DNA from: Candidatus Latescibacterota bacterium
GTDB lineage: Bacteria; Latescibacterota; UBA2968
Direction of reading: 5' to 3'
Assembly (NCBI GenBank): GCA_038279365.1
Contig: JAYODI010000072.1
Location: 1 to 14,851 of the forward strand
Length of the DNA stretch: 14,851 bases
The notes under the pieces are model-generated. The model saw nothing but the letters and a program-made list of their open reading frames with translations, searched no databases and was not told where the DNA came from. A program made the translations under genes and the position numbers. How positions within the stretch are numbered: the first letter of the stretch is position 1; the number at the start of each line of letters is the position of its first letter. This document shows, piece after piece, positions 1 to 14,851 of this stretch.

Positions 1-139
1 AGTTGGCCTTTTTTAACGCTATTCCTCAAAGTTGCACTTATAACTTGAATTCAATCATTAAAAAAAGATCTGTAAAGTTTGTTTTTAAAAAGGTTACAAA
101 CGCGTGAGTGATGGTGATCATTCAAAAGGTGAACCTTTT

Positions 140-1339
140 ATGCCCGTCAATTTGAACCATTTTCAAGACCTTATTGAAAACAGCGTCCACATGATTATGA
201 GAACCGATCCCAATGGTTTGATTCTCTATGTGAACCCTGCTTGGCATCAGGCATTGGGATACCCAGGTGCTGCAGTTGGCATGCTTCGCATTATGGATCT
301 GGTGCATCCAGATTATGTGACAGATTTTGAAAAGCTGTTTCGCCAAGTGCTTTCGGGCAATAAACAGGCGCGTGTTGAAACCGCATTTTTGGCAGAAAAT
401 GGACACATGGTGACCATGGAAGGCAGTATGAGTTGCAGTTTTGTCAATCATCGCCCATATGCCATTCAAAGTGTGTTCCAAAATATTTCAGATCGCAAAA
501 GAGCCGAAGATATGCTCGTGCGTCAGGCAACGGAGTTGTTGCGGGTACACAATTCGTTAGAAGCGCGTGATCGTGAATTGGCCGATACTTTAGAACAAGC
601 CCGCAAATACCGCGAAGCACAAAAACGGGCAGAAGAGTTGTCGGAAATAAACAAAGAGCTGACAGCAGAAGTTAAACGTCGCCAAGAGGCGGAAGCGGCC
701 ATTCGGGTCTCTTTACAAGAAAAAGAAGTGCTGTTAAAAGAGATTCATCACCGTGTAAAGAATAATTTGCAGATTATCTCAAGCCTGCTTCATTTGCAGT
801 CGGGTTATATTGATGATGAACGTACCTTGCAAATGTTCAAAGAGAGCCAAAGTCGTATTCAGTCGATGGCACTGATTCACGAAAAACTCTATCAATCTGG
901 AGATTTGGCACGGGTTGATTTCTCGGAATATATGGACAGTTTGGTCAGCTTCTTAACGCGGTCATATGGGGCAGGGGGGGTAGGTGTTTCACTGGATGTG
1001 GCACCTGTATTTCTGAGTTTAGACACCTCTATTCCATGTGGTTTGATTGTGAGTGAGTTGGTGTCCAATTCGTTTAAATATGCTTTTCCAGAGGGGCATT
1101 CGGGGCATATTTATGTGGCGTTAAAGCCCATTGATGACGAACATTATGAACTTTGTGTGGGAGATACGGGTGTTGGGTTTCCTGAAGATGTGGATTTTCG
1201 AGAAACCGAATCATTAGGACTTCAGTTGGTGACAACGCTCGCCAGTCAGTTAGATGGCAAAATTGCACTGGATCGGCGTCGGGGCACAGAATTTCAGATC
1301 CGTTTTCGGGTACATAAGTCCGATCGAATAAAGAAGTAG
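140..1339 (+). CDS. Cytoplasmic PAS-domain sensor histidine kinase, HisKA_2 family
   Basis: N-terminal PAS (TDPNGLILYVNPAW..LGY..DLVHPD..ISDRKRAE), long coiled coil, H-box EIHHRVKNNLQIISSLL, N-box ELVSNSFKYAF, G1 DTGVGFP, SLGLQLV. No TM segment. ATG140 has SD-like AAGGTGA at 126-132; GTG104 is the alternative start. Confidence 0.93.
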   Translation: MPVNLNHFQDLIENSVHMIMRTDPNGLILYVNPAWHQALGYPGAAVGMLRIMDLVHPDYVTDFEKLFRQVLSGNKQARVETAFLAENGHMVTMEGSMSCSFVNHRPYAIQSVFQNISDRKRAEDMLVRQATELLRVHNSLEARDRELADTLEQARKYREAQKRAEELSEINKELTAEVKRRQEAEAAIRVSLQEKEVLLKEIHHRVKNNLQIISSLLHLQSGYIDDERTLQMFKESQSRIQSMALIHEKLYQSGDLARVDFSEYMDSLVSFLTRSYGAGGVGVSLDVAPVFLSLDTSIPCGLIVSELVSNSFKYAFPEGHSGHIYVALKPIDDEHYELCVGDTGVGFPEDVDFRETESLGLQLVTTLASQLDGKIALDRRRGTEFQIRFRVHKSDRIKK

Positions 1340-1390
1340 CAAGATGTTGGCATCACTTATGGGTTTGAGCTGTTATCATACACAAAGATG

Positions 1391-1418
1391 CGCCACTTAT
1401 ATCTAAGTGGCGTTTTTT
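1391..1418 (+). terminator. Intrinsic terminator after the kinase
   Basis: CGCCACTTA-tatc-TAAGTGGCG (9-bp stem) followed by T6. Confidence 0.85.
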
Positions 1419-1608
1419 AATTTTAATGGCTGATATGGTGCATGCCTGGTCTTTTGGCGCAAATATGCGTCATATCAAGCACTTTGGGTTCAAAAATGAA
1501 AATGTGTGGTTTTGAACCATTTAATTTTTTTAAAAAAAATAGTATAAAGTGTTGGTATTTATTGATATGATCATGTAATTTATGAATTGTGTTCGAAATT
1601 TGTCTAAT

Positions 1609-1625
1609 TGGGTACGGGCTTTGCA
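1609..1625 (+). promoter_or_regulatory. Putative sigma54 (-24/-12) promoter of the lipoprotein-TPR-kinase operon
   Basis: TGGGTACGGGCTTTGCA: GG(1611-12)-N10-GC(1623-24), close to TGGCACG-N4-TTGCW; AT-rich tract and palindromes upstream. Confidence 0.65.
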
Positions 1626-1725
1626 TATATAAATATCTAACACAAATCATTGTGATGTAGATCATATCGCACGGTAATTAAAACAAGCACATTCTATGCA
1701 AAGCCAACATTCCCCTGGAGGCAAT

Positions 1726-2442
1726 ATGAAAAAAATGAAACCATACATGCGCAGATCACGTTTTTTGTCGGTTGCGATTCTAATTGCGTTTATGACTGTG
1801 GTGGGGTGTGGTGAATTAAACCACTCACCAATGGGCACACAGGAGTCGTCTGAATTACAAACGGCTACAGAGGCACCGGCTGGTTATTTGGTGTTTTCAC
1901 CATTCATGGCCAGGCAGGTTGCTGCAAAGACGGTCAAAGTATCGGTTGGTCAGGCTTTTACGCACAGCGTGACAAAGGGTTTTGAATTTGATGAAAATGA
2001 GAAATTAGAGATTGAATTTGATGCTGAGAAACGTTCTTGGAGTGATTGGAAGGATAGGAATGCCACAATTGGGGTCGAAAAGGCCACATTTTTTGTTCGG
2101 AAAAATTCTATTGATATCTCAGAACTGACCAAAGATCAAATTTCAGAGTATGTGCATCGAAAAGAAATTGATATCACCATGGCTGTTTCTTCTGGTACGA
2201 CATTGGAAGAGGTGGCTGTGGGGTTTGGTCCTTCGGGTCTCTTGTTTCGTCCGTCTGCAAAATTGGAGATACAGCTTACGGGTAATCTCAAGGGTTTGAT
2301 TGCTGAAGGTCAAAGTTTTGCCTACCACATTGATGCAGATGGTAGCATTACAAAAGTGGAGATGGAGGTCGATGTTAATTCAAATGGTGCAAAGTTGCGT
2401 ATTGAAGTGCCAGGCTTTTCACGTTATACAATTGACGATTAA
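1726..2442 (+). CDS. Putative lipoprotein with ZU5-like domain (paralog 1)
   Basis: GGAGG at 1717-1721 before ATG1726 (ORF track starts at 1696). Basic N-terminus, hydrophobic stretch, lipobox VVGC. FGPSGLLF..AKL motif; C-terminus VPGFSRYTIDD. ZU5 assignment is by motif resemblance only. Confidence 0.7.
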   Translation: MKKMKPYMRRSRFLSVAILIAFMTVVGCGELNHSPMGTQESSELQTATEAPAGYLVFSPFMARQVAAKTVKVSVGQAFTHSVTKGFEFDENEKLEIEFDAEKRSWSDWKDRNATIGVEKATFFVRKNSIDISELTKDQISEYVHRKEIDITMAVSSGTTLEEVAVGFGPSGLLFRPSAKLEIQLTGNLKGLIAEGQSFAYHIDADGSITKVEMEVDVNSNGAKLRIEVPGFSRYTIDD

Positions 2443-2481
2443 GTTCAATGGGTCATCTTAGTTTATTTCGCGGAGGTTCAC

Positions 2482-3069
2482 ATGTTTTCAAAGATTTTCA
2501 AACGTACGATGGTGGGTGTGTTGACTTTGGGGTTGGCATTGGTCATAAACGGGTGTGGTCAGGTCGATCAAGCACCTGTTGCCTCTGATGTGGCACAAGC
2601 AGAAGGCATCTCATATATCGCATTTTCACCACAAGCACCCTTTCGGGCTGCCAAATATAGTGATGGTGGTATCCTTGTCGATTCCGACTTGATAGGTGCC
2701 GCAGGTGATACATTGTATGTCGAAGATTTGGGTGATGAAGGCCCTGCCGATGATTTGGCACTTAACTTTGAAGTGTTTGCTGGTGGCTTAGACAGTGAGC
2801 ATCAAATTACGATGACAGTGACCAAAGGGTCGTTGTCGCAGGTTGTGGCTGCTTTTCAACCCGTTGGTTTGAACTTTTTGATTGATTCAGAACTTCAGTT
2901 TATTGTGGGTAGTGACCTGGTTGATGTGGATTTGTCTTCGTTGATCGCTTGGCATATTCACGGTGATGGTTCTGCCGAACATGCACAAATGTGGGCCGAA
3001 GTGGTTGGCGACAAAACGATTGTACACGTGAAGGTGCCTGGTTTTTCACGGTATTCTATTGACGATTAA
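2482..3069 (+). CDS. Putative lipoprotein with ZU5-like domain (paralog 2)
   Basis: GGAGG at 2472-2476; signal peptide ending INGC. IGAAGDTL..FEVFAGGL..ITM..FQPVGLNF pattern resembles ZU5; C-terminus VPGFSRYSIDD. Confidence 0.72.
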   Translation: MFSKIFKRTMVGVLTLGLALVINGCGQVDQAPVASDVAQAEGISYIAFSPQAPFRAAKYSDGGILVDSDLIGAAGDTLYVEDLGDEGPADDLALNFEVFAGGLDSEHQITMTVTKGSLSQVVAAFQPVGLNFLIDSELQFIVGSDLVDVDLSSLIAWHIHGDGSAEHAQMWAEVVGDKTIVHVKVPGFSRYSIDD

Positions 3070-3125
3070 GCGTTGATTGTTGCAAAAGTATTCTCTGTTT
3101 TGGTTTTTATTGAGAAAGCATTCCA

Positions 3126-4319
3126 TTGGCTGATCACACCAACATATCGGCTCTGATAGGCAATTTAACAGAGCTGCAAAAAGACCTCAAGGTTGAAGAC
3201 ATATTGGCACAAGCCTTGTCTGAACCCATGCCCACCGAAGAACGGTTGCGGCAGGTTGAGCAGGCGCTTGAGACCTTTAAGAGTCTGGGAATCTTGGGGG
3301 GTGAAGATGCGCGTGATTTGCATTTGTTGCTCACTTTAGGACGCACCTATGAGCGTTTGTCACACTTTGAAAAAGCCTACGAGACCTATGAAACGGCTTT
3401 GAAGTTGGCAGAGCGCCACGATGATGCGGCGAGTAAAGCGGAGTTGTTTAGCCAAATGGGGCGGGTGCTCACACGGTGGCAGCGTTGGGATGAGGCGGTT
3501 CATTATCTTGAACAAAGCAGTCAGGTTTATGAAGCACTCGGTGATGTTTTGGGTCAGGTACAAACGATTGTGCGCCGTGGCACTGTGTATTTAGAGCAAG
3601 GCAACTATGAGGCCGCCCAAGAGGTATATGAACAAGCTTTGCAATTGGGTGAGCAAATAGACGACAAAAAAACGATTGCCCGGGTAAATAACAATATGGC
3701 AATATTGGCCACCATCCAGGGCAATATGGATGAGGCCATTGCAAAGTATGAAGCTTGTTTGGTGATGTATGTTGAGTTGGGTGATGAACGTGGTATGGCA
3801 AGTGCTTATCACAATTTGGGTATGACCTACGCCGATTTGGAAGATTGGACATCGGCGATGGATGCCTATGAAAAAGGTTTTGAAGTGGCTCAAAAAAGCA
3901 GTCACTTAGACATTATGGCCAATATTCACCTGAGTATGGCCGAGGTGATGCTCGAAATGGGCAACAGCATGATGGTTCCCATGTGCTGTGCACGCGCTCT
4001 GGATATTTATCGCAAAACAGGAGATCGGTTGGGTGAGGCAGATGCCTATCGGTTGCTGGGTCGCACGTTTGGCATGCGCAAAGACTGGGACACGGCAAAT
4101 CAGTTGTTTAAAGACAGTTTAACACTCAATGAGGAACACAGCAATCCGTTGGGGGTTGCAGAAACACAACGCGATTGGGGAAAGATGCTGATGAATCGTG
4201 GCCTAAAAACAGACGCACAACACATGTTAGAGGTTGCACAGATAGGGTTCGAAAAATTGGGTGCGCAGGCCGATGCCCAAAAGGTGGAAACGGCTTTGGA
4301 AGAACTCAAACAAATTTAA
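3126..4319 (+). CDS. Tetratricopeptide repeat protein (8 tandem 40-aa repeats)
   Basis: TTG start. Eight consecutive repeats with an exact 40-residue period, e.g. AYHNLGMTYADLEDWTSAMDAYEKGFEVAQ. No signal peptide and no recognisable catalytic or HTH domain. Confidence 0.9.
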   Translation: MADHTNISALIGNLTELQKDLKVEDILAQALSEPMPTEERLRQVEQALETFKSLGILGGEDARDLHLLLTLGRTYERLSHFEKAYETYETALKLAERHDDAASKAELFSQMGRVLTRWQRWDEAVHYLEQSSQVYEALGDVLGQVQTIVRRGTVYLEQGNYEAAQEVYEQALQLGEQIDDKKTIARVNNNMAILATIQGNMDEAIAKYEACLVMYVELGDERGMASAYHNLGMTYADLEDWTSAMDAYEKGFEVAQKSSHLDIMANIHLSMAEVMLEMGNSMMVPMCCARALDIYRKTGDRLGEADAYRLLGRTFGMRKDWDTANQLFKDSLTLNEEHSNPLGVAETQRDWGKMLMNRGLKTDAQHMLEVAQIGFEKLGAQADAQKVETALEELKQI

Positions 4320-5881
4320 TGCATAAGCAGGTTGTGTTAATGAATAGTACGCGTATTTTGGTGGTAGAAGACGAGCAAATTGTATCCAAAGACATTCAAC
4401 TGCGGTTGAAGCGTTTTGGATACGAGATTGTAGGTGCTGTTGCTTCCGGTGAAGATGCCATTGCATTGGCCAAAGATACGCGGCCTGATTTGGTTATGAT
4501 GGATGTGATGCTCAAAGGTGATATGATGGGCACTGAAGCAGCTGCCGTGATTCACCGTGAGTATGATATTCCGGTGATTTATTTAACTGCTTATGCCGAT
4601 CAAAACACTCTCAATCAAGCCAAAGTAACCGAACCTTATGGGTATGTGCTCAAACCATTTGATGAGCGCGAGTTGCAAACTGCCATTGAAATGGCGCTGT
4701 ATAAATATCGTGCTGAAAAGGAAAAACAAGCATTAAAAGAACAATTGTTACAAGTACAAAAACTTGAGGCCATTGGTCATTTGACCACTGGTGTGGCGCA
4801 TAATTTTAATAATGCACTCAATGTCATTATTGGCAATTTAGAGTTGGCTCGGATGCATGCCGATGATACCATATTGCCCTATTTGAATAGATCTCAAAAA
4901 GCTTCGGAGGGAGCCGCTCGCATTGTGGATGGGTTGTTGGCTTTTTGTCGTGAAAGAAAAATGAAACAGGATGTGTTTGATGTGTGTGGGGTTGTTTGTG
5001 AGGCGGCAGATATGTGTCGCCAATCTCTTAAGGGCGAAATGAACTTACAGGTTCATGTTCCCGATGAGACATTTTTTGTTGTTGGCGATGACAATCATAT
5101 TCAACAAGTGATTTTGAATTTGTGTCTAAACGCCCGTGATGCGGTTGAAGAAATTGAAGATGCACGTGACCCGCAAATAGATGTGCACATCCAAAAAATT
5201 GAGCGTGCAGGTGTTCAATATGTATGCATTTTGGTTGAAGACAATGGCATTGGGATGCGCGAAGATGTGAAGCAACATATTTTTGAACCTTTTTTTACGA
5301 CCAAGCCTGTTGATCGGGGTACGGGTTTGGGATTGGCAACCGCATATGGGATTGTCAATGATCACCATGGATGTATTGCTTGTACCAGCGAAGAAGGTGT
5401 TGGCACGACGTTTTCTGTTTATTTGCCATTGACGGACAGTCACGTTAAAGATATAGAAGTGATAGCCCCTCCCCCATCTATTAATCATATCAAGGATGCA
5501 CGAGAAGATGCGCGGGGCCATACGGAAACGATCTTGGTTGTGGAAGATGAAGAATTGGTGCGGCGCACCACAACGGAATTGCTCAAGATAAAAGGATACA
5601 AAATTATTGAGGCTGTGGATGGACGGGCTGGGTGGGAAGTTTTTCAGGCACAAAAAGATGAAATTGATTTGGTGATGTTGGATTTGTCTATGCCGTGGAT
5701 TTCGGGTTTGGAATTGCTCAAGTTGATTATAGATCTGGCCCCAGATACACGGGTGATTATTGTGACGGGTAACCCGCCTGAAAGTATTTTGGCCCCTGGT
5801 GCCAAAGCTGTTTTGGCAAAACCTTTGATGCCCAACTTGATGTTTGATTTGGTTCGCCGTGTCCTAGATGATGAGGAGTGA
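4319..5881 (+). CDS. Hybrid histidine kinase/response regulator (REC-HisKA-HATPase_c-REC)
   Basis: REC1 ILVVEDE..MMDVML..LTAY..KPF; H-box GVAHNFNN; QVILNLCLNARDA, DNGIGM, FEPFFTTK, GTGLGLA; REC2 VVEDE..MLDLSMP..KP. Start is ATG4319 (TAATG overlap with the TPR stop) or ATG4340; the 4175 start in the ORF track lies inside the TPR gene. Confidence 0.93.
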   Translation: MHKQVVLMNSTRILVVEDEQIVSKDIQLRLKRFGYEIVGAVASGEDAIALAKDTRPDLVMMDVMLKGDMMGTEAAAVIHREYDIPVIYLTAYADQNTLNQAKVTEPYGYVLKPFDERELQTAIEMALYKYRAEKEKQALKEQLLQVQKLEAIGHLTTGVAHNFNNALNVIIGNLELARMHADDTILPYLNRSQKASEGAARIVDGLLAFCRERKMKQDVFDVCGVVCEAADMCRQSLKGEMNLQVHVPDETFFVVGDDNHIQQVILNLCLNARDAVEEIEDARDPQIDVHIQKIERAGVQYVCILVEDNGIGMREDVKQHIFEPFFTTKPVDRGTGLGLATAYGIVNDHHGCIACTSEEGVGTTFSVYLPLTDSHVKDIEVIAPPPSINHIKDAREDARGHTETILVVEDEELVRRTTTELLKIKGYKIIEAVDGRAGWEVFQAQKDEIDLVMLDLSMPWISGLELLKLIIDLAPDTRVIIVTGNPPESILAPGAKAVLAKPLMPNLMFDLVRRVLDDEE

Positions 5882-5930
5882 TCTCGTCTTTTAATTGAAA
5901 TATTTTATTGAATTTATCAAATTGTTGCCG

Positions 5931-5975
5931 AATAAACAAACGCGGTTGCTCAACATGAGCAACCGCGTTTTTATT
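5931..5975. terminator. Bidirectional intrinsic terminator between convergent genes
   Basis: Perfect 15-bp inverted repeat AAACGCGGTTGCTCA-aca-TGAGCAACCGCGTTT (5938-5970), A-rich on the left and T-rich on the right. Confidence 0.88.
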
Positions 5976-6261
5976 TGTTTTTATAGAGGCTGTTTGCTTT
6001 ATAGACAAATGCGAGGAGTTCAGCTATGGTGCGATAAAGTTCGGGTGGAATTTCTTGGTCGAGATCTAACTTGGCCAACACGGCCACCAAATCGCGATCT
6101 TCACGAATGGGAATGTTGTGTTCTTTTGCCAGTGCAATGATGCGATCGGCAACTTCACCCTGCCCTTTGGCCACCAATTTGGGTGCATCTGTTTTGGCGG
6201 GGTCGTAACCGAGTGCGGCTGCGATGCGACGCAGTTTGGGGTTTTCTGAGGGATTGGGCAT
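5971..6261 (-). CDS. FlhB C-terminal-domain-like protein (FlhX/YlqH; EscU/YscU/HrcU family)
   Basis: AAALGY..APKLVAKGQGEVADRIIALAKEHNIPIRED..L..LDLDQEIPPELYRTIAELLAFVY is the stand-alone FlhB-CC pattern. Confidence 0.92.
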   Translation of the reverse strand: MPNPSENPKLRRIAAALGYDPAKTDAPKLVAKGQGEVADRIIALAKEHNIPIREDRDLVAVLAKLDLDQEIPPELYRTIAELLAFVYKANSLYKNK

Positions 6262-6268
6262 AAAGAAC

Positions 6269-6389
6269 GGTCTCAGGTTTGCAGGTCACAGGCATGGTTT
6301 TTCTGATTCGAACTTGTGACTTTCATACTTGCGACCCTGTTTTATGGTTCTGACATGAGACTTGCAGACTTGTGACCTGTGACCTGTCT
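6269..6389. repeat. Degenerate 7/8-mer repeats in opposite orientation at the two ends of the spacer
   Basis: CAGGTCACAGG (6282-6292) is the reverse complement of CCTGTGACCTG (6376-6386); tandem units CATGAGA CTTGCAGA CTTGTGA CCTGTGA CCTGTCT. Confidence 0.7.
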
Positions 6390-6390
6390 G

Positions 6391-7674
6391 TTATTCTTTT
6401 GGTTCAAACACTGCTTTGCCACCCAAGTAGGGGCGCAACACCTCGGGAACGATAACACTGCCATCGGCTTGTTGATATTGTTCGACAATGGCTGGGATGA
6501 GTCGGCTGGTGGCCAAGCCCGATGCGTTGAGGGTATGTGCAAAGGCGTTTTTGCCGGTGTCACTGCGTTTGTATCGGATGTTGCCACGACGGGCTTGGTA
6601 ATCGTTTGCATTGGAAGCCGAGCTGACTTCTTTAAATTCGTTCATGCTCGGAATCCATACCTCAATGTCATAGGTTTTGGCCATAGATGCACTGGCGTCT
6701 TTGGCGGCCAACTTAGAAACTTGATGATGTAAACCCAAGCCCTGTACGAGACGCTCTGCTTTTTCGATGAGTTCTTCTAGTGCGTTGTTGGAATCTTCGG
6801 GGCGTGTGTATTGAAACATTTCAATTTTGTTGAATTGGTGGCCACGAATCATGCCACGTTCTTGGGCGCGATAGCTGCCGGCTTCTTTGCGGTAACACGG
6901 TGTGTAAGAGAAGTATTTTTTGGGGAGCTCATCTTCGGGAATAATTTCGTCTCTGTGAAAGTTGATAAGCGCTGTTTCGGAAGTGGGCAGTAAAAATTGA
7001 ACTTTTCCATCGTCATTTTTAAGATGAAACACATCATCGGCAAATTTGGGAAATTGCCCCGCGGCATATCCACAGGCTTCATTTAGGATGTGTGGGGGCA
7101 ACACAAATTCATATCCATCTTGGGTGTGCTGATCCATAAAATAATTAAGCAAAGCCCATTCAAGTCGGGCACCATCGCCAATGTAGAGCCAAAAACCGGT
7201 ACCGCCCATTTTGACACCACGTTCGTAATCGATAAGGCGAAGGGAAGTTACAAGGTCTACATGGTCTTTGGGTTCAAAACCAAAAACGGGCAATTCTCCC
7301 CAAGTGCGTACGACCTGATTGTTTTCTTTGCCACCGGCCACCACATCATCTGCGGGCATGTTGGGCAATTCGTCAAGAAAGTCGTGAATGTTTTGTTCGA
7401 TTTGCGATAAATTGCTTTCGATGGTTTTGATTTGGTTCGAGACTTCTTTCATTTCTTGCTGGAGAGACGTGGTGTCTTCTCCGGCTTTTTTCATTTTTGG
7501 GATTTGACCTGAAACGGTGTTGCGCTTTTCACGCAAAAGCCCCACTTGGGTAATAAATTCTCTGCGTTGTTTGTCCCACAAAAGCAGTTCTGTAAAGTCA
7601 ACGCTGTCCATGCGTTTGAGCAGGGCTTGGCGTACGGCTTCGGGATTTTCTCTGATGAGGTTGATGTCCAGCAT
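6391..7674 (-). CDS. serS: Serine--tRNA ligase
   Basis: MLDINLIRENP start with GGAG SD, N-terminal coiled-coil arm, LLPTSE, YRKEAG, RGHQFNKIE, TYDIEVW, EVSSASN, HTLNASGLATSR. Confidence 0.98.
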   Translation of the reverse strand: MLDINLIRENPEAVRQALLKRMDSVDFTELLLWDKQRREFITQVGLLREKRNTVSGQIPKMKKAGEDTTSLQQEMKEVSNQIKTIESNLSQIEQNIHDFLDELPNMPADDVVAGGKENNQVVRTWGELPVFGFEPKDHVDLVTSLRLIDYERGVKMGGTGFWLYIGDGARLEWALLNYFMDQHTQDGYEFVLPPHILNEACGYAAGQFPKFADDVFHLKNDDGKVQFLLPTSETALINFHRDEIIPEDELPKKYFSYTPCYRKEAGSYRAQERGMIRGHQFNKIEMFQYTRPEDSNNALEELIEKAERLVQGLGLHHQVSKLAAKDASASMAKTYDIEVWIPSMNEFKEVSSASNANDYQARRGNIRYKRSDTGKNAFAHTLNASGLATSRLIPAIVEQYQQADGSVIVPEVLRPYLGGKAVFEPKE

Positions 7675-7738
7675 AAAAACTCCAAGGAAATCACAAAACA
7701 AGAAACGGCATGTTAAAGCGGGTTCTTGATGTGCTGTT

Positions 7739-8299
7739 TTATTTTATTTTTGCAATGGCTTGGTCGCGTCCATTGCGCTTGAGTAGGGTAATGATGGGCA
7801 GGGCTTTGGCCGGTTGCATGTGACTGATCACTGTGGCCAAATCGGCATCTGGCAATGGCAAGAGCACTTGCATGGCTTCACCTGGTTCTAAGGGTTCACA
7901 CCGGCGGGCCAATTGTTTCAATTTTTGGTTGTGTTCTTCAAGGGTCAATTTGAGACGTTTTTCTAAGTCTTTGCGCAGTTGCGCCAATTCTTTTTGTTCT
8001 TTTTCCAATTCTTGATAAACCTGCCTGCTGGCTTGTGCTGTGGGTGATGTTTGTGGGGATACGGGTTTTGGTTTAGGAGACGTTTTGGCAACCTCTTTGG
8101 TTTCATTTGTCAACAAAGTGTCTTTGGGGTGGTTTAGGGTATCTGGGGCAATGGCGACTTGTTGGGTCACCACCGTTTTTGTGGTTTTTGGGCGTTGGCG
8201 TGGTGGTTCGGGGCGAAAAATGGCGATCATGACACCTAAAATGATCACAAAAGACCCGAACATGATGACGATCAGCAAAGTGGCAGGATTGAATTTCAT
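7739..8299 (-). CDS. MotE/FlbB/YlxF-like flagellar membrane protein (MgtE_N-like C-terminal domain)
   Basis: Single N-terminal TM helix, Pro/Thr/Lys-rich linker, coiled coil, then LARRCEPLEPGEAMQVL..LPDADLATVISHMQPAKA helical repeats. Confidence 0.7.
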   Translation of the reverse strand: MKFNPATLLIVIMFGSFVIILGVMIAIFRPEPPRQRPKTTKTVVTQQVAIAPDTLNHPKDTLLTNETKEVAKTSPKPKPVSPQTSPTAQASRQVYQELEKEQKELAQLRKDLEKRLKLTLEEHNQKLKQLARRCEPLEPGEAMQVLLPLPDADLATVISHMQPAKALPIITLLKRNGRDQAIAKIK

Positions 8300-8345
8300 T
8301 GTCTAAAAATGAAAAAATATGTTGTTGTGTGCGTTCAATCACATT

Positions 8346-8372
8346 GGATCGGGCAAAAAATGTCGATCTTTA
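8346..8372 (-). promoter_or_regulatory. Possible sigma28-like promoter
   Basis: Minus strand TAAA-N15-CCCGATCC versus consensus TAAA-N15-GCCGATAA (5/8 in the -10), upstream of a flagellar-type gene. Confidence 0.3.
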
Positions 8373-8634
8373 TAAACAATACTGGTTTTTAGCGTTTATA
8401 AAGATGGTAGATCACAACGAGTTGAATGAGCATCACAATGGCGGCGAGAAGTGCAAACATTGCATTGTACCAATGTCAAGATGGCAGATGTTGCCAAATC
8501 AAGGTCAGTTTGAGGTCATTTTAACCAATGTGATGTAAATATGACACACTATTTTTCAAATTTTAAATCAGATAAAAAATTATAACTAATTTAAAAATAT
8601 GAATTTACGATACATGTTGTATTTTTTGTTATTT

Positions 8635-8651
8635 TTGGCACCTAATTCGCA
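8635..8651 (+). promoter_or_regulatory. Putative sigma54 (-24/-12) promoter
   Basis: TTGGCACCTAATTCGCA: GG(8637-38)-N10-GC(8649-50), after an AT-rich tract and 56 nt upstream of ATG8707. A TATAAT at 8654-8659 is an alternative sigma70 -10. Confidence 0.62.
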
Positions 8652-8706
8652 TGTATAATGGGTGTCCATTCATTTATTAAATTGTCCCGATTTAGGGGAG
8701 GAAGAT

Positions 8707-8868
8707 ATGACGAGCACAAATTTAGAAAAACGCGATCAATTGGCCTATTTGGCTTTGTATTATGCCATTCATGGTGAAGACGAACGTTCTGAAAAAATCC
8801 GTTTGGCCTTGCGACAGTTAGATAGCATGATTTCTGGGCATCAAGTTGCTGAACCTGTTGGTGCGTAG
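8707..8868 (+). CDS. Small hypothetical protein (53 aa)
   Basis: Strong SD GGGGAGGA (8695-8702), ATG8707, promoter upstream, helical-looking sequence MTSTNLEKRDQLAYLALYYAIHGEDERSEKIRLALRQLD. Confidence 0.7.
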   Translation: MTSTNLEKRDQLAYLALYYAIHGEDERSEKIRLALRQLDSMISGHQVAEPVGA

Positions 8869-8873
8869 GGGAT

Positions 8874-8922
8874 AGCGATCAGCTATCAGCAGTCAGCTAT
8901 CAGCAGTCAGCTTTTAGCTTTA
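8874..8922. repeat. Heptamer tandem repeat (AGCnnnn x7)
   Basis: AGCGATC AGCTATC AGCAGTC AGCTATC AGCAGTC AGCTTTT AGCTTTA. Confidence 0.9.
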
Positions 8923-8933
8923 AAAGCAAAACC

Positions 8934-10031
8934 TTAAAAAACGCTGAGTACGCGTTCGGTAATGTGTTGAATGTGTTCGCGTGTGAGTTCGGGATAAAGC
9001 GGTAGAGACAGGATCTCTTTGGCTGTTTTTTCTGCAACAGGAAAATCCCCTTCTTTGTGACCCATTTTTTTAAATGCGGGTTGTTGGTGAAGGGGGATGG
9101 GGTAGTGCACTTGGGTGGCAATGTCTTCTTTGTGCAATACCGTTTCTATTGCGTCGCGCTTTTGCGTTCGAATGACGTAATATGTATGCACATGCCGGTT
9201 GCCATCACGCTCAACGGGTGTTTGGATTGGGGTGTTTTTAAAGCACGCGTTATAAAATTGTGCATGGTCGCGTCGTTTTTCTAACCATGTTTCAAGATGG
9301 CTGAGTTTGACCTGTAATATTGCCGCCTGTAAGGGATCAAGGCGATAGTTATAGCCTGATATTTCGTGCTCGTATTTTTCTACACGGCCGTGGTTGGCGA
9401 GCATTTTCATTTTTTGGGCCAATGTTCCATCTTTGGTGATCACGATACCTGCATCACCAAATGCACCTAAAATTTTGCCGGGAAAAAAACTAAACGTGGC
9501 AGCCGTTCCAAAATGGCCTGCCCGATTTTTTTTGTACTCTGCGCCATGTGCTTGTGCGGCATCTTCGATTACAGCAAGCTGGTGCCGATTGGCGATTTCC
9601 ATAATGGCATCCATATCGGCAAGTTGACCGTATAGATGTACGGGAACAATGGCGCGTGTTTTGTTTGTGATGGCTGCTTCGAGCTTGGTGGGGTCTAAAT
9701 TCATGGTGTCTTCACACACATCAACAAAGACCGGTTTTGCACCTGTTTGCACAATGGTTTCAACGGTGGCAATAAAGGTGTTTGGCACGGTGATGACTTC
9801 GTCACCTGGGCCAATGCCCAGGGCTGCAAATACAAGGTGCAATGCAGTGGTGCCCGAGCTTGTACCCACGCCAAAAGGGACGCTGCAATAGGCTGCAAAG
9901 GCGTCTTCAAATGCTTTGAGGTATGGGCCACCAATGAAGGCGCTGTCTCGAATGACCTGTTGCATGGCATCATCAATTTCGGGTTTGATGGATTGATATT
10001 GTGCATAGAGGTCAATGAGCGGAATGGCCAT
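8934..10031 (-). CDS. DegT/DnrJ/EryC1/StrS family PLP-dependent sugar aminotransferase
   Basis: SSGTTALHL, GIGPGDEVI, PVHLYGQ, IEDAAQAHGA, SFFPGK (PLP lysine), GYNYRLD, LSLPLYP. Confidence 0.96.
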   Translation of the reverse strand: MAIPLIDLYAQYQSIKPEIDDAMQQVIRDSAFIGGPYLKAFEDAFAAYCSVPFGVGTSSGTTALHLVFAALGIGPGDEVITVPNTFIATVETIVQTGAKPVFVDVCEDTMNLDPTKLEAAITNKTRAIVPVHLYGQLADMDAIMEIANRHQLAVIEDAAQAHGAEYKKNRAGHFGTAATFSFFPGKILGAFGDAGIVITKDGTLAQKMKMLANHGRVEKYEHEISGYNYRLDPLQAAILQVKLSHLETWLEKRRDHAQFYNACFKNTPIQTPVERDGNRHVHTYYVIRTQKRDAIETVLHKEDIATQVHYPIPLHQQPAFKKMGHKEGDFPVAEKTAKEILSLPLYPELTREHIQHITERVLSVF

Positions 10032-10033
10032 AT

Positions 10034-11176
10034 TTACTCCGTGTTGAGTTTGGCGGTGAGCCCTCGTTGTTGAAGTTCGGCCTGTGCTTTTGCAAATCCA
10101 TCAACGGCTTCTTCTTCACGGGCCCATTCAACGAGTTCTTCCATGCCTTGTTCAAATGTGACCTTGGGATCAAATCCCAAGGTTTTTTTTATGCGTGAAA
10201 TGTTTGCGATGCTGTGGCGCGTGTCGCCCTCACGGTAGTTTTTGGTGATTTCGGGCGTGAGGTGTTCCACACCGAGAATGTTGGAGAGGGTATGGGCAAT
10301 GTGCTCTATGGATATGGCTTTTCCAGACCCGACATTGAAAGCTTGGTAATCGCCGTCTGGTTTTTCCATGGCCAGCATGTTGGCTTGTACGATGTCGTGA
10401 ACAGAAATAAAGTCGCGCGATTGTTTGCCGTCTTCGTAGATGACGGGACGCTTGCCATTTTTGAGGCGGCTCATAAAAATAGCTCCCACGCCCGTGTAGG
10501 GGTTAGAGAGCGACTGGCGTGGGCCAAAGATATTGAAATACCGCAAGGCTACGGCAGGAATTTTGTAAGCTTTGCCAATGCTGAGCACCATATCCTCTTG
10601 GTGTGTTTTGGTTTGGGCATAAATGGCATAACAAATGCGTTCGGTATCTTCTGAAACGGGTGCGGCTGGCATGTCGGTTTGGCAAATGGGACATTTGTGT
10701 TCCCACTCGTGTTTTTCAAGTTGTGACACGGGGCGCAAACCTGGGTGTTGGATGCCGTGTTCGGGGCAAGTATAGAGGCCTTCACCATAGCTGGTTTGTG
10801 AGGCTGCGACGATCATTTTTTCAACGTTGTGTTTGTTGTTGGCCAAAATGTCGAGCATGTTGGCTGTGCCACCGGTGTTGACATCGACATACTTTTTGAT
10901 CTCGTATTGCGATTGGCCCATGCCCACGGCTGCGGCTTTGTGAAAGATGATATCCATGCCATCGAGTGCCTTTTTAAAGGCATCGTAATCGCGTACATCG
11001 CCTTGTATAAATTCGGCATGAGGGTTGGCATATTTGGGCACACTGCCCGTTGTATGCACTTGTGGATCGAGGCAGTCGAATATGCGCACTTGGTGGCCGC
11101 GTTGCACCAGTTCATCTACCAGATAAGAACCGACAAACCCCATTCCACCGGTTACGAGAATTTTTTTTGAAGACAT
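10034..11176 (-). CDS. NAD-dependent nucleotide-sugar epimerase/dehydratase (extended SDR)
   Basis: ILVTGGMGFVG Rossmann motif, YAQTK (YxxxK), LRYFNIFGP, DGKQSRDFISVHD. Confidence 0.95.
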   Translation of the reverse strand: MSSKKILVTGGMGFVGSYLVDELVQRGHQVRIFDCLDPQVHTTGSVPKYANPHAEFIQGDVRDYDAFKKALDGMDIIFHKAAAVGMGQSQYEIKKYVDVNTGGTANMLDILANNKHNVEKMIVAASQTSYGEGLYTCPEHGIQHPGLRPVSQLEKHEWEHKCPICQTDMPAAPVSEDTERICYAIYAQTKTHQEDMVLSIGKAYKIPAVALRYFNIFGPRQSLSNPYTGVGAIFMSRLKNGKRPVIYEDGKQSRDFISVHDIVQANMLAMEKPDGDYQAFNVGSGKAISIEHIAHTLSNILGVEHLTPEITKNYREGDTRHSIANISRIKKTLGFDPKVTFEQGMEELVEWAREEEAVDGFAKAQAELQQRGLTAKLNTE

Positions 11177-11196
11177 GGAAACTTTCGATGTTAAAG

Positions 11197-11297
11197 GCAG
11201 TGAAATGGCAGACGTGAAATGGCAAAAGTAAAATCTTTAGAAGCAGTGAAATGGCAGACGTGAAACGGCAAAAGTAAAATCTTTAGAAGCAGTGAAA
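11197..11297. repeat. 46-bp tandem duplication (2 copies + 9 bp) built from heptamers
   Basis: GCAGTGAAATGGCAGACGTGAAA(T/C)GGCAAAAGTAAAATCTTTAGAA at 11197 and 11243 with one mismatch; partial third copy at 11289. Confidence 0.95.
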
Positions 11298-11333
11298 CAA
11301 AAAACCTACCCCTCAATCTCATAACAAGGTTGA

Positions 11334-11355
11334 TTCGTTTGCCGTTTGCCGTTTG
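11334..11355. repeat. Heptamer repeat (CGTTTGC) complementary to the upstream AAACGGC units
   Basis: TTCGTTTGCCGTTTGCCGTTTG; TTTGCCGTTT (11338-11347) is the reverse complement of AAACGGCAAA (11263-11272). Confidence 0.8.
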
Positions 11356-12336
11356 TTATTCTAACACTTTGCGAACATTAAATTTTTCACCGGGTTGTGG
11401 GCCTCGGGTGAGCATGTCGGCCAAGAGACCGGTGCAGATAAATTGCACACCGAGCACGGTGAGTAAGACGCCCAATGTGAGCAGGGGGTGTCGGTTTTGA
11501 ATGGTGCCTGTTTGGAGCCAAAGGTATGCAATAAAGCTGTTGACGCTCATGCCAAGAATGCCAAAGATGAGGCCCATGGTGCCAAAGAGGTGAAGGGGGC
11601 GCCCCATGTACTTTCCGATATACATGACGGTGAGCAGGTCGAGAAACCCTTTGAGCAAACGCCCCATACCGTATTTGGTCACCCCAAATTGACGCGGGTG
11701 ATGTTGTACGGGGATTTCTGCCACGCGATAACCTTCAAGGTTGGCCAAAACGGGGATGTATCGGTGGAGTTCGCCAAAGACGCGTACGTCTTTGGTTACT
11801 TCGTTGCGATAAGCCTTGAGGCCACAGTTGAAATCGTGAATTTTGATGCCTGAAACACGGCCTGTTACCCAGTTAAAAAACTTGGAGGGTAGGGTTTTGC
11901 CCAAAGGATCAAAGCGTTTCTTTTTCCAGCCCGAGACGAGGTCATATCCTTCATCCAATTTGGCGAGCAGGCCTGGAATTTCTGCGGGGTCGTCTTGGAG
12001 GTCGGCATCCATGGTGATGACAAATTGACCCTTGGCGCGTGCAAAACCTGCGGTGTAGGCGGCGGCTTTGCCAAAGTTACGTCGAAATTGAATGACGTTG
12101 ACTTCTTTGTGTGCGGCGTGAAGTTCTTCGAGCACGTGCATCGAACCGTCTTTGGAGCCGTCGTCTATGAAGATGATCTCGTATGTCAGACCACTGTTGT
12201 TGAGTGTGTCTCGGATTTTTTCCATTAAGGGCCGCAAACTCTCTTCTTCATTGAGCAGAGGAATGACCAGTGTGAGATCAACTGGGTATTTGGGCTCAAA
12301 AGGGACGGTGGCGTCAGATGGTGATTGTGTGTTCAT
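11356..12336 (-). CDS. GT2 polyprenyl-phosphate glycosyltransferase (ArnC/DPM-like)
   Basis: VIPLLNEE, IDDGSKD, RRNFGKAAA, MDADLQDDP, HDFNCGLKAY, GELHRYIP, two C-terminal TM helices. Confidence 0.95.
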   Translation of the reverse strand: MNTQSPSDATVPFEPKYPVDLTLVIPLLNEEESLRPLMEKIRDTLNNSGLTYEIIFIDDGSKDGSMHVLEELHAAHKEVNVIQFRRNFGKAAAYTAGFARAKGQFVITMDADLQDDPAEIPGLLAKLDEGYDLVSGWKKKRFDPLGKTLPSKFFNWVTGRVSGIKIHDFNCGLKAYRNEVTKDVRVFGELHRYIPVLANLEGYRVAEIPVQHHPRQFGVTKYGMGRLLKGFLDLLTVMYIGKYMGRPLHLFGTMGLIFGILGMSVNSFIAYLWLQTGTIQNRHPLLTLGVLLTVLGVQFICTGLLADMLTRGPQPGEKFNVRKVLE

Positions 12337-12483
12337 AGCGTTCCAAGGATGGGTGGATCAGTGAATCGGCAAGACGACGAATTGACGCACGGGCGAAGCC
12401 TACAACGATAATCAACACATAGGTGTTGTCTCAACGTGCGTAACGAATCGCGGATGGGTTTCGTTTTTACGACGTCTATTCGT

Positions 12484-13542
12484 TTATGGTGTAATCTGTT
12501 CTACTTTTAGGCCTGTGGGATCAATTTCCACAGGCAGTATTTGTGCTGTGGGTACTGTACTTAGAATCTTTTGCCATTGATCAGATAAGGTGGTGATTTG
12601 CTCGGGTGTTTGCGCCAAAGCCCAGACACACCCGCCATTGCCACTGCCTGCTGTGGCAAACCCAATGTTTATGTCTTTGCAAATGGCTTGAAGCTTTTCA
12701 CCGATATTGGTGATGCGACTGGGTACGATGCTGCATCGAATTTGGGTTTCTTCGTTGATCAGTTTGCCTGCGGCTTCCCAATTTGAATGTTGTATTGCTT
12801 GAGCAAATTCATTGGCAATTTCGTTGATTCGAAACCATTTGGCTCGATTTTTACCTGCAAGAAAGTCGGTCACCTGTTTGCTGTTCACATCATTGGAGTC
12901 GTGGCTTCTTCCCACATAGGCAACCAAGATGCGTTTGCTGACGTCGTCATAATTATCGAGCAATTGTTCTCGGCGAAATTTGCCATGTAATTCGCCATAG
13001 GTCCAATGCCAACGGCTGATGCCTCCAAAGGCGGCGGCACATTGATCTTGTAGGCCGGTAAACGAATATCGCATGCCATCTTCGATGTTGTAGACGAGTT
13101 CGACAATGGCTTCGCGTGAGAGGTTGCCACCACCGGCCAGTTCTTGTGCGCGCGCCAGTGCACCTGCCAAAGCAACGGACAAAGTGCCAGACCCCCCCAC
13201 ACCGCTTCTGGGCGGACACCCATATCCGATTTCGATTTCCATGCCACTGAGCCCAAAATAAGCCACAATGGCATAAAGCAAACCAAAGTGACTGCTCATA
13301 TCGATGTTGTCGATGGGAAATTCTTCGTGGTGTTGGTCATCAAAAATTTTGACCCAGCCAGGTTTAAAGCTGCGAATGTGGATGCGTGTGCGTATGGTGA
13401 GGGCCAAATTTGTGGTGACAGGGTTGACGTGTACGTAGGGCAGTGCAAAACATTTGAGGTCCCAAGTACCCCCTACATCTACACGACTTGGGGCCGATGA
13501 GAGGATGTTGATGTTTTTCAGTTTTTCGCTGATATCGGGCAT
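12484..13542 (-). CDS. GHMP-family sugar kinase (HddA-like)
   Basis: SAPSRVDVGGTWD, PPRSGVGGSG (GHMP ATP loop), GLQDQCAAAFGG, GSGNGGC. Substrate uncertain. Confidence 0.85.
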   Translation of the reverse strand: MPDISEKLKNINILSSAPSRVDVGGTWDLKCFALPYVHVNPVTTNLALTIRTRIHIRSFKPGWVKIFDDQHHEEFPIDNIDMSSHFGLLYAIVAYFGLSGMEIEIGYGCPPRSGVGGSGTLSVALAGALARAQELAGGGNLSREAIVELVYNIEDGMRYSFTGLQDQCAAAFGGISRWHWTYGELHGKFRREQLLDNYDDVSKRILVAYVGRSHDSNDVNSKQVTDFLAGKNRAKWFRINEIANEFAQAIQHSNWEAAGKLINEETQIRCSIVPSRITNIGEKLQAICKDINIGFATAGSGNGGCVWALAQTPEQITTLSDQWQKILSTVPTAQILPVEIDPTGLKVEQITP

Positions 13543-13560
13543 AGAAATTGGTAAACCAGA

Positions 13561-13652
13561 AGAAGTGGAAAGGTAGAAGAAAAAAGCAAAAAGAAAGAAG
13601 CGGGTAATGATTTTGTCTTCATCCCTCTTCCTTCTCTATTTTTCTGTTTTTC
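13561..13652. repeat. Purine-rich degenerate heptamers followed by a pyrimidine-rich tract
   Basis: AGAAGTG GAAAGGT AGAAGAA AAAAGCA AAAAGAA AGAAGCG, then TCTTCATCCCTCTTCCTTCTCTATTTTTCTGTTTTTC. Confidence 0.5.
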
Positions 13653-13702
13653 AAAGATAGCAAAGAGCGGGTTTTTTGACAAACATAAAGGTTTTCAAGT
13701 CT

Positions 13703-14722
13703 TTAGGCTGATAGGTTGAAGCTGTCAAATGCATCTATTACGTGTGATGTAGGGATGGTGGCCATGGCTTTGTCGTCTCGTGGGACTTCGGGAGGTGGTT
13801 CAACGACAATTCGTGGATATGTGCCAGGGTATGGCCCCCATTGTTGGCTGCTGTTGGCTCCCATAATGGCAATGGTGGGGATTTCTACGGCAGCAGAGAC
13901 ATGCATTGGAAATGAGTCGATGGTGATCATGGCCCGACATCTTTTGAGTAGTCCTGCAAATTGGAGCAGAGAAAATTTGCCCACCAAACTGATGGCTTGG
14001 TGTTTCATGTGCGTTTTGACAGCCTCTATTTCTGCGCCATCAGATGGGCCACCGTTGAGCAATATTTGAAACCCTTTTTCGGCAATATGATCGGCTACAC
14101 TGGCCCATCGCTCGGGCATCCAGGCTTTGTCTGGGCGACCCGAGGTGATGCCGAGGACAATAGCTGGTGGCAAATTTGTCAGAAGTTGATCGATGGGAGA
14201 GAGGTCTTCGGTTTCGGGGAAGATGCGAAATTGAACTGGTGCTTGGTTTACACCTGCGGCGTGCATAAGTGCCATGTAGTTGTCTACAACGTGGCGTGTG
14301 GGGTCAAAGCTGACTTTGTTGTTCCACGCCCAAGCTGATTTTGCAACATTGAACCCCCAGCGTTGTTTGCCACCCAATAAGCGAGAAAATGCGGCGGCTT
14401 TGGCGGCTACACGGAAATTGAAGATGTGGTCGAATTTTTGTGCGCGAATGTGTGCTATGGCTTTGGGCAACGGTTGCCATGAGGGATGACCTGTGCGATC
14501 CAGCCACGGTAAGTTACATGGAATGATCTCGTTGAGATCGGGATTGCCTTTGAGTATTGATGTTGCCCACGACCCGGCTAAGACGCTGATATGGGCTTCG
14601 GGATAGGTTTGACGAAGCGCGTAAATGGCCGGTGTGGTGAGGAGCATGTCGCCCAAGTGATCGGGGCGGAAGATGAGGATTTTTTGATTGTTCAAGGGGT
14701 TCGGATCACAGGTCAATGCCAT
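13703..14722 (-). CDS. Glycosyltransferase family 9 (LPS heptosyltransferase-like)
   Basis: ILIFRPDHLGDMLLTTPAI..LRQTYPEAHI, KAWMPERW, LVGKFSLLQ, TIDSFPMHVSAA, WGP. Confidence 0.93.
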   Translation of the reverse strand: MALTCDPNPLNNQKILIFRPDHLGDMLLTTPAIYALRQTYPEAHISVLAGSWATSILKGNPDLNEIIPCNLPWLDRTGHPSWQPLPKAIAHIRAQKFDHIFNFRVAAKAAAFSRLLGGKQRWGFNVAKSAWAWNNKVSFDPTRHVVDNYMALMHAAGVNQAPVQFRIFPETEDLSPIDQLLTNLPPAIVLGITSGRPDKAWMPERWASVADHIAEKGFQILLNGGPSDGAEIEAVKTHMKHQAISLVGKFSLLQFAGLLKRCRAMITIDSFPMHVSAAVEIPTIAIMGANSSQQWGPYPGTYPRIVVEPPPEVPRDDKAMATIPTSHVIDAFDSFNLSA

Positions 14723-14785
14723 TCATGTTTATTGCTTCACGAAATGCAAAATGGCCGATAAATACGCGATATAAAATGATTTATT

Positions 14786-14839: not shown

Positions 14840-14851
14840 TCGTTAAAAATC

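Follow-up and report, generated by a model that had tools for sequence, protein, structure and literature searches.

Peptide signalling via cytoplasmic tetratricopeptide repeat (TPR) receptors is, to our knowledge, known only from the Firmicutes and their phages, and we know of ZU5 self-cleavage as a signalling device only in animal proteins (PIDD, NLRP1/CARD8 and the adhesion G-protein-coupled receptors). Here we describe a gene cassette from uncultured diderm phyla that appears to join these two themes. It was found on the forward strand of a 14,851-nt stretch of DNA from a Candidatus Latescibacterota bacterium (contig JAYODI010000072.1, positions 1-14,851, assembly GCA_038279365.1), which is referred to below as the window. 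The cassette encodes two paralogous lipoproteins (lipoA and lipoB), a TPR protein and a hybrid histidine kinase.

In RRNPP signalling (Rap, NprR, PlcR, PrgX and AimR), as in this cassette, the gene of a cytoplasmic TPR protein of about 400 residues adjoins that of an exported precursor, and here too the ligand would come from the C-terminus of the precursor. The targets of Rap proteins are receiver domains, of which the kinase here has two. Nevertheless, no clear sequence kinship with RRNPP proteins is detected, and Pfam identifies neither a helix-turn-helix (HTH) nor a Rap-type N-terminal domain in the TPR protein. The precursor is a lipoprotein of 195-238 residues with its own predicted cut site and not a short pro-peptide, the host is a diderm and not a member of the Firmicutes, and output runs through histidine or Ser/Thr kinases and sigma54 activators. 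By analogy, then, the system would work like RRNPP signalling without belonging to it, while its lipoproteins appear ZU5-like by fold and motif.

Other described systems share single features with the cassette. The best natural solved profile matches of the TPR protein are LGN/Pins and kinesin light chain, which have the same 40-residue TPR_12-type repeats. LGN and kinesin light chain bind extended, often acidic peptides in a concave groove, although, unlike the bacterial TPR protein here, they are eukaryotic scaffold proteins. The RcsF-RcsC/D and NlpE-CpxA pathways also tie an exported lipoprotein genetically or functionally to a histidine kinase pathway, and the Rcs kinase is likewise hybrid. 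However, RcsC/D and CpxA are membrane kinases that meet their lipoprotein in the periplasm, whereas the kinase and TPR protein here have no membrane segment, and the lipoprotein families are unrelated. The NtrB/NtrC system resembles the cassette in its -24/-12 promoter, rpoN and histidine kinase, and activators of REC-AAA-HTH architecture lie inside the cassettes of relatives. In contrast to that system, the window has no activator gene, and the activator at a second locus of the same genome is receiver-less, with a PspF-like architecture.

The lipoproteins themselves are comparable with the self-cleaving ZU5 superfamily (PIDD, UNC5CL, the FIIND of NLRP1 and CARD8, Nup98/Nup145, and GAIN/GPS). 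The ZU5, GPS and Nup96/98 domains form one autopeptidase superfamily with bacterial members, according to the relevant passages of Zhang et al. 2012 (PMC3482391). As set out in parts of D'Osualdo et al. 2011 (PMC3210808), CARD8 and NLRP1 are cut before the last Ser of S-F-S and PIDD and Nup98 before that of H-F-S; a buried Phe puts strain on the backbone, the Ser acts as nucleophile, and the residue at position -2 carries little weight, while histidines elsewhere in the domain are essential. The likeness lies in the beta-sandwich, as modelled for the lipoproteins, and in the x-F-S motif that closes the last strand, whose Phe and Ser are invariant, a histidine that may lie at a distance being required as well (same passages of PMC3210808). 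The differences are that the protein here is a stand-alone bacterial lipoprotein of about 200 residues, that position -2 is usually Gly, and that 6-36 residues follow the site, where other members of the superfamily have a folded domain or a seven-transmembrane receptor. An earlier reading of the window, made from its sequence only, had not recognised the gene combination as a described system, and a literature search (supplements aside) found no paper on it. Known domains are here assembled in an undescribed way.

The operon and its conservation

The four genes are best explained as one sigma54-driven operon, this genome's form of a cassette that is conserved in Latescibacterota and in further uncultured phyla. 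Its features, all on the forward strand, are as follows.

1455-1472 (+): inverted repeat TGGCGCA-N4-TGCGTCA, a candidate binding site for an activator, some 150 nt upstream of the promoter element
1610-1625 (+): predicted sigma54-type -24/-12 promoter, GGGTAC-N5-TTGCA, from a pattern match and conservation in a genome of the same genus (G001)
1726-2442 (+): lipoA, 238 residues; likely start ATG at 1726, five bases past GGAGG, in an open reading frame of 1696-2442
2482-3069 (+): lipoB, a paralogous lipoprotein of 195 residues
3126-4319 (+): TPR gene, 397 residues
4319-5881 (+): hybrid histidine kinase gene, 520 residues
5938-5970 (+): intrinsic terminator, with a T run after a 15-bp stem that has 8 GC pairs

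The sequence-only reading had seen four co-oriented genes with a 1-nt overlap, bounded by a -24/-12 motif and a strong terminator, and the coordinates bear this out. The gaps measure 39 nt between lipoA and lipoB and 56 nt between lipoB and the TPR gene, the stop codon of the latter and the start of the kinase gene have one base in common in TAATG at 4317-4321, and both bounding elements are present at the positions listed above.

Within the window alone, a loose -24/-12 pattern is found four times against 2.4 expected, which is not above chance. Comparison with G001 shows that a 25-nt block over the element is identical at 25/25 positions, with a diverged spacer around it. Upstream of homologous lipoprotein arrays, sigma54 sites (at least 9 of 11 consensus positions, with GG and GC fixed) occur in 20 of 34 cases; the background taken from the same loci is 0.062 per 470 nt, so that about two arrays with a site would be expected by chance. 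The genome encodes rpoN (sigma54). Contigs from RNA libraries of three studies bridge lipoA/lipoB (three runs) and lipoB/TPR (three runs), covering pieces of 1736-4253 with 1300-1735 and most of the kinase gene outside their coverage; they are weak evidence for co-transcription of lipoA, lipoB and the TPR gene, as such contigs cannot prove a single transcript and may reflect DNA carry-over. The promoter at 1610-1625 is credible because of rpoN, its conservation in G001, the excess of sites before arrays and the RNA-library contigs. The inverted repeat at 1455-1472 also lies inside a block conserved between the window and G001, the surrounding spacer having diverged, and is a candidate activator site. 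That the cassette is real and sigma54-controlled is very probable.

One condition that would have refuted the proposal of the sequence-only reading, a neighbourhood not conserved in other genomes, clearly does not hold: both across the phylum and on metagenome contigs, lipoprotein genes repeatedly adjoin TPR genes and are accompanied by kinases, NtrC-type activators and sigma54 promoters. When the genome of the window was searched with a TPR protein profile, two copies scored strongly (655 and 591 bits) and 32 generic TPR proteins stayed below 70 bits, and the lipoprotein profile finds three genes at two loci, exactly those that the two strong TPR genes adjoin. Related genomes hold 36 lipoprotein arrays. 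A TPR gene of at least 100 bits starts no more than 350 nt downstream on the same strand in 23 of them, three more abut a lower-scoring STAND NTPase-TPR gene and one ends at a contig edge, the rest including lone or decayed copies. A metagenome scan with an 18-row alignment gave 13 arrays on 12 contigs, some of which duplicate each other, with lipoprotein-TPR adjacency in seven and a contig edge in two. Counted by genome, the lipoprotein occurs in 23 of 168 members of the phylum, the TPR protein (E<=1e-60) in 18 and both in 16. The seven genomes with only the lipoprotein have STAND-fused TPR forms at the locus, while the two with only the TPR protein comprise one fragment and one contig that starts at the TPR gene. 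No fewer than eight families have the lipoprotein-TPR pair, which is present even in genomes of 1.3-1.8 Mb.

The output genes vary more. Solo TPR genes are often directly followed by a gene for a soluble histidine kinase (window, G001, G002, the second locus of the window's genome, L024, L025, L026 and L030), in some cases with an overlap between the two. At other loci the TPR domain forms the C-terminal end of an AAA_16 STAND NTPase (about 800 residues) and of a Pkinase-AAA_16-TPR protein (about 1100 residues). Loci of this STAND type also carry a short HisKA-HATPase kinase (about 330 residues), a single receiver, a zinc-ribbon-FHA protein and an NtrC-type activator (REC-AAA-HTH). The C-terminal repeat region of STAND proteins is the sensor. 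Because the lipoprotein and the TPR are constant while the output is variable, the lipoprotein is tied to the sensing side. Beyond receivers, FHA/zinc-ribbon proteins and housekeeping genes, the neighbourhood scans revealed no extra conserved gene family.

The lipoproteins and their tails

Export of two products had been proposed from their lipoboxes, and both do carry a basic n-region, a hydrophobic core (Kyte-Doolittle 2.15 in lipoA and 1.76 in lipoB) and a lipobox Cys, within VVGC (Cys28) in lipoA and INGC in lipoB. Judged by these signals, lipoA and lipoB are exported. The lipobox Cys is present in 140 of 150 aligned family members, and nine of the other ten are gapped at the position. Three alternatives for the export or processing of these proteins were dropped: Tat export of lipoA, its twin arginine not being conserved in relatives; a C-terminal sorting signal, no hydrophobic helix following the motif; and a ribosomally synthesised and post-translationally modified peptide precursor, the HaaT model scoring 83 bits against a cut-off of 1125 and the neighbourhood scans having turned up no conserved gene family beyond those given above.

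The two lipoproteins are 36% identical across their last 89 residues, and lipoB scores 169.8 bits against the family hidden Markov model. A word-indexed search returned only nine relatives. Among 1.84 billion representatives, a profile search retrieved 808 (E<=1e-3), of which 321 also reached E<=1e-10, with lengths mostly of 190-260 residues. A word-indexed search with the wide alignment and a look-up of the clusters of 10 representatives yielded hardly any organism names, and outside Latescibacterota the range of the family is given by Atlas taxa only. The analysis thereby defines a previously unnamed lipoprotein family of at least 808 sequence clusters, and provides a lead to the function of a distinct TPR subfamily and its kinases. 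Searched against solved sequences, the lipoprotein profile matches only the signal peptide regions of solved lipoproteins, and a scan of the close-family alignment on the genome contigs gave one weak, irrelevant match.

Two hints of ZU5 kinship come from sequence. Three of the 150 family members reach Pfam ZU5 (PF00791) at E<=0.01, the best at 2.7e-5, and in a neighbouring Atlas cluster ZU5 is found on 50% of members. An AlphaFold2 model of the lipoprotein, built from 16 sequences, has a mean predicted local distance difference test score of 70.5, with a beta core of 75-94 and a disordered N-terminal stretch of 49 residues. When this model was used in a wide VIA-align search, ZU5 or GAIN domains filled 14 of the top 20 rows. 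The ankyrin ZU5 domains came first (Z 8.2, 7.3 and 6.9; the best, AnkB ZU5, at a root-mean-square deviation of 2.8 over 110 residues), followed by ZO-1 ZU5 (6.5), the GAIN domains of adhesion G-protein-coupled receptors (about 6-7) and UNC5b ZU5 (5.7), with NLRP1 FIIND (4.5), the autoproteolytic domain of Nup145 (3.9) and CARD8 (3.8) lower down. Foldseek placed the GAIN domain of GPR56 at the top (E 6.7e-4). As a Z near 8 is only moderate, the call rests on the consistency of this list and on the two sequence hints. The modelled fold is probably ZU5-like.

The C-terminal ends of the two proteins contain the candidate self-cleavage sites, as listed here.

2416-2421 (+): lipoA, predicted scissile F231-S232, from conservation of the family motif and the end of the fold alignment
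2419-2439 (+): lipoA, predicted seven-residue tail SRYTIDD, downstream of the predicted cut
3043-3048 (+): lipoB, predicted scissile F188-S189
3046-3066 (+): lipoB, predicted tail SRYSIDD

The family-wide motif is V-P-G-F-S-x-Y, in which the Phe is found in 148, the Ser in 146 and the Tyr in 142 of 150 members. LipoA ends in VPGF231-S232-RY, and in the model F231-S232 closes the last strand. Structural alignments stop at model residues 231/232, which face the final residue of the NLRP1 ZU5 fragment (1212) and that of the Nup145N chain (606); we take these chain ends to be natural cleavage points. Upstream, His201 (lipoA numbering) is present in 146 of 150 family members, and three of the four without it have a His at position -2, giving the canonical HFS. 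This either/or arrangement is also seen among 58 proteins from the loci, where 45 have only His201, 12 have only the His at -2, one has neither and none has both. Because a structural residue would not swap position in this manner, the histidine may be catalytic, or may orient groups near the scissile bond. On balance, we expect that lipoA and lipoB would cleave themselves between Phe and Ser, leaving SRYTIDD and SRYSIDD, as far as motif and family conservation can indicate.

The position of the histidine differs, between the inner strand and -2 of the motif, even between species of one genus with genomes of 1.3-1.8 Mb (loci L057-L060; G066, G067 and G069). One species has C-Y-H ... D-G-F-S, while two have C-Y-C ... 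K-H-F-S, and the tail RYAWA is identical in both arrangements.

Among the 150 aligned members, between 6 and 36 residues (median 15) follow the predicted cut site. The tails of lipoA and lipoB match at 6/7 positions, as compared with 25% identity between their bodies. More generally, tails vary widely from one locus to another, whereas tandem paralogs at the same locus have similar ones, for instance TIDD/SIDD in the window, DDPPEGE... twice at L024, ...DDEGW(W) four times in G080 and SLGE twice at L029. The 16 pairs of paralogs that share a locus have a median identity of 0.32 in the body and of 0.42 in the tail past S-x-Y, whereas 728 between-locus pairs at equal body identity have a median tail identity of 0.17. 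Between the window's genome and G001, identity is 91% for the TPR protein, 71% for the kinase and 42% for the lipoprotein, and the G001 tail is kept as SRYSFDD. Retention of the tail while the body diverges is the pattern expected if the tail, and not the body, matches the neighbouring receptor.

A supposed division into basic tails with STAND partners and acidic tails with solo TPRs was abandoned, being broken by L051/L052. Six family members (P0048, P0062, P0105, P0106, P0149 and P0150) have two-cysteine tails with aromatic ends (...C-x-G-C-G-F, ...C-W-G-W), which might form disulfide-closed peptides.

The TPR protein, the kinase and a possible circuit

The TPR protein consists of eight 40-residue repeats of TPR_12 type (Pfam TPR_12, 3.5e-42), and its orthologs are nearly all 392-401 residues long. 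One that is 91% identical comes from a Candidatus Latescibacteria metagenome-assembled genome (MAG), with more distant ones named from Handelsmanbacteria and Planctomycetota MAGs. A hydropathy scan of the TPR protein and the kinase found no segment above Kyte-Doolittle 1.4 and no signal or transmembrane segment, in agreement with the sequence-only reading; both the TPR protein and the kinases are, on this prediction, cytoplasmic. By profile, the closest solved natural relatives of the TPR protein are LGN/GPSM2/Pins (1.4e-32), then SPINDLY/OGT, TONSOKU and kinesin light chain (about 1e-19), and AfsR (1e-11). RRNPP chains were not among the best 60 of 128 solved TPR matches, and the AimR model aligned with E 8.3e-5 over about 40 residues, at 21.8 bits against a cut-off of 70. 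The protein had been likened both to RRNPP receptors and to LGN and kinesin light chain; LGN/Pins and kinesin light chain are indeed closest by sequence, while the RRNPP comparison holds as an analogy only. When groove positions were assigned by reading the alignment against the usual TPR register, a conserved Asn fell at position 6 of helix A in repeats 4-6 and conserved Arg/Lys at groove positions of repeats 1, 2, 7 and 8. Such residues would suit an extended peptide with an acidic end.

The kinase has the order REC-HisKA-HATPase_c-REC by Pfam (two Response_reg stretches at 1.5e-41, HisKA at 4.1e-6 and HATPase_c at 5.6e-23). It is a hybrid histidine kinase, with a phospho-His box HisKA, a HATPase_c and a receiver in one protein. 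The translation shows the H-box, and in both receivers the acidic pocket, Asp, Thr and Lys. In G001, a gene for an NtrC-type activator directly follows that of the kinase. The window's genome has 10-11 OppA-type binding-protein genes, which permit peptide import but are no proof of it.

A second cassette of the same genome lies on another contig (C185, L019:1121-5700), in the order receiver-less sigma54 activator (AAA+ and HTH only, 339 residues), sigma54 site, lipoprotein, TPR protein, kinase. Its lipoprotein has the canonical A-H-F-S-E-Y and a 26-residue acidic tail, and its kinase has a degenerate receiver-like N-terminus. Because the activator there has no receiver, the TPR protein of this second locus might act on it directly.

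The circuit that we propose would run as follows. LipoA and lipoB, once exported and lipidated, would cut themselves between Phe and Ser, and the cut would expose or release a seven-residue acidic peptide (SRYTIDD or SRYSIDD). The free peptide, or else the tail of the precursor, would be the ligand of the TPR groove. The liganded TPR protein would then alter the activity of the translationally coupled REC-HK-REC kinase, which would feed an NtrC-type activator (in the cassette of relatives, not in the window), and that activator would switch on the sigma54 promoter before lipoA, closing an autoinduction loop. We put the probability of this whole self-inducing lipoprotein-TPR-kinase-sigma54 circuit at roughly 0.45, the steps of tail sensing, kinase control and activator feed being those we infer. 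That the TPR protein senses a lipoprotein-derived ligand is a tentative view, held at slightly under even odds. The same idea in the sequence-only reading has gained in one part, namely the F-S motif, the either/or histidine and the locus-conserved tail, while binding of the tail by the TPR protein and control of the kinase stand as conjecture. If the circuit is true, it would represent a new type of precursor and a new class of receptor for bacterial cell-cell or envelope signalling, and self-cleaving ZU5 domains would have signalled in bacteria before their use in animal immunity.

Several observations weigh against this circuit. Foremost is topology, for the ligand would arise outside the cytoplasm and every form of the TPR protein is cytoplasmic; moreover, no transporter or membrane protein is conserved in the cassette according to the neighbourhood scans. 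The description of the system as having no membrane receptor is true of the operon, but the N-terminal receiver of the kinase offers an ordinary alternative input for which the TPR protein is not needed. The window contains no gene for a cognate enhancer-binding activator (serS comes after the terminator), and the best of 26 enhancer-binding protein paralogs in the genome are only 42-50% identical to the G001 activator. As to the lipoproteins, Pfam and NCBIfam leave lipoA and lipoB unnamed, with no Pfam ZU5 match at E<=0.1, so that the earlier term 'ZU5-like' is upheld by predicted fold but not by Pfam on these two proteins themselves; the fold Z of 7-8 is in a range that VIA-align calls common among unrelated models; and position -2 in the family is mostly Gly, neither His nor Ser. 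Finally, an adjacent TPR gene is missing in 10 of the 36 arrays, and related genomes are not independent samples.

One elaboration of the circuit addresses the topology by import. It would be a diderm peptide-pheromone system in which the last 6-36 residues of a self-cutting ZU5-type lipoprotein are shed outside the cytoplasm, and the peptide re-enters the cell to meet LGN-like TPR receptors with interchangeable outputs (a hybrid histidine kinase in the window, STAND Ser/Thr kinases at other loci) and sigma54 self-induction by way of NtrC-type activators. We regard this full version as doubtful. If true, it would do outside the Firmicutes what RRNPP quorum sensing does within them, and would be the first known case of bacteria using ZU5 self-cleavage for signalling.

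The least unlikely alternative to the circuit, though still unlikely, is that the lipoprotein is merely a co-regulated output. The cytoplasmic kinase network (TPR scaffold or STAND sensor, histidine kinase, Ser/Thr kinase, FHA, REC and NtrC-type activator) would then sense an unrelated intracellular cue and turn on the lipoprotein as an envelope protein, and F-S-x-Y would serve maturation or stability rather than signalling. The position of the lipoprotein as the first gene behind the sigma54 promoter fits this well, as do the cytoplasmic nature of all other parts, the want of a conserved importer in the cassette and the kinase's own receiver input. Yet it is the outputs (histidine kinase types, Ser/Thr kinase, STAND) that vary and the lipoprotein-TPR pair that is constant, which places the lipoprotein with the sensor module; the TPR subfamily occurs almost only where the lipoprotein does, and conservation of tails within a locus exceeds that of bodies.

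The remaining two alternatives are less probable still. Mislocalised lipoproteins RcsF and NlpE report secretion or lipoprotein-maturation stress to Rcs and Cpx, and the TPR protein could likewise capture the tail of an unexported lipoprotein precursor. Such export surveillance would solve the topology without an importer, and would account both for the within-locus match of tail and receptor and for a cytoplasmic TPR protein; it nevertheless leaves the near-invariant scissile motif and the either/or histidine unexplained, and by inducing further precursor the promoter would intensify the very stress signal that activates it. We consider it improbable. Most improbable of all is a STAND-based conflict or anti-phage system with the ZU5 protein as a processed effector or decoy, even though STAND NTPase-TPR and kinase-STAND-TPR proteins are found at many loci, the kinase domain matches PADLOC kinase models, and ZU5 autopeptidases are known from bacterial conflict systems (passages of PMC3482391 and PMC8195603). 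In PADLOC the lipoprotein has no match and the TPR protein just a generic one, and a toxin or nuclease domain is absent. The regulatory connections of the cassette are to NtrC-type activators, histidine kinases and sigma54 promoters, and it is kept even in genomes of 1.3-1.8 Mb.

Further loci and flanking genes

Some loci of related genomes are more elaborate than the window. In G080, a 40-kb region (C1:7928000-7968000; L025 and L026) has at least five lipoprotein genes and three of that genome's four strong TPR copies, along with several hybrid kinases and one kinase-STAND-TPR gene; four of its lipoprotein tails end in ...DDEGW(W). At L024, L027, L038 and L039, a 126-residue protein with a zinc ribbon and FHA domain and single receivers are encoded between the activator/kinase pair and the lipoprotein gene, which points to cross-talk of Ser/Thr phosphorylation with the two-component pair. 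The G036 cassette is interrupted at L015:14018-15001 by an insertion sequence-type transposase (HTH_38 and rve) between the kinase-STAND-TPR and short histidine kinase genes.

Rfam and tRNA scans of the window gave no matches. On the opposite strand, serS (6391-7701) converges on the terminator at 5938-5970. A lone lipoprotein gene of G001 (contig C309, locus L020) lies between a serS fragment and a phage-type integrase gene, and the presence of serS beside the cassette in the window and of the fragment beside this lone gene suggests rearrangement at the spot. Further along the window, on the reverse strand, 7739-8299 encodes a 186-residue protein without a Pfam match, in which a membrane helix at the N-terminus is joined by a Pro/Thr/Lys-rich linker to a coiled-coil-like C-terminal half. 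It is followed at 8934-14722 (-) by a run of envelope-sugar genes: a DegT-type aminotransferase, an NAD-dependent epimerase/dehydratase, a family 2 glycosyltransferase, a GHMP kinase and a family 9 (heptosyl)transferase.

Upstream of the operon, positions 104-1339 (+) encode a soluble PAS-HisKA_2 histidine kinase with its own terminator at 1390-1413. A PAS-HisKA_2 kinase gene, 79% identical, also precedes the G001 cassette, where a single-receiver gene lies upstream of it. This kinase could feed the N-terminal receiver of the hybrid kinase.

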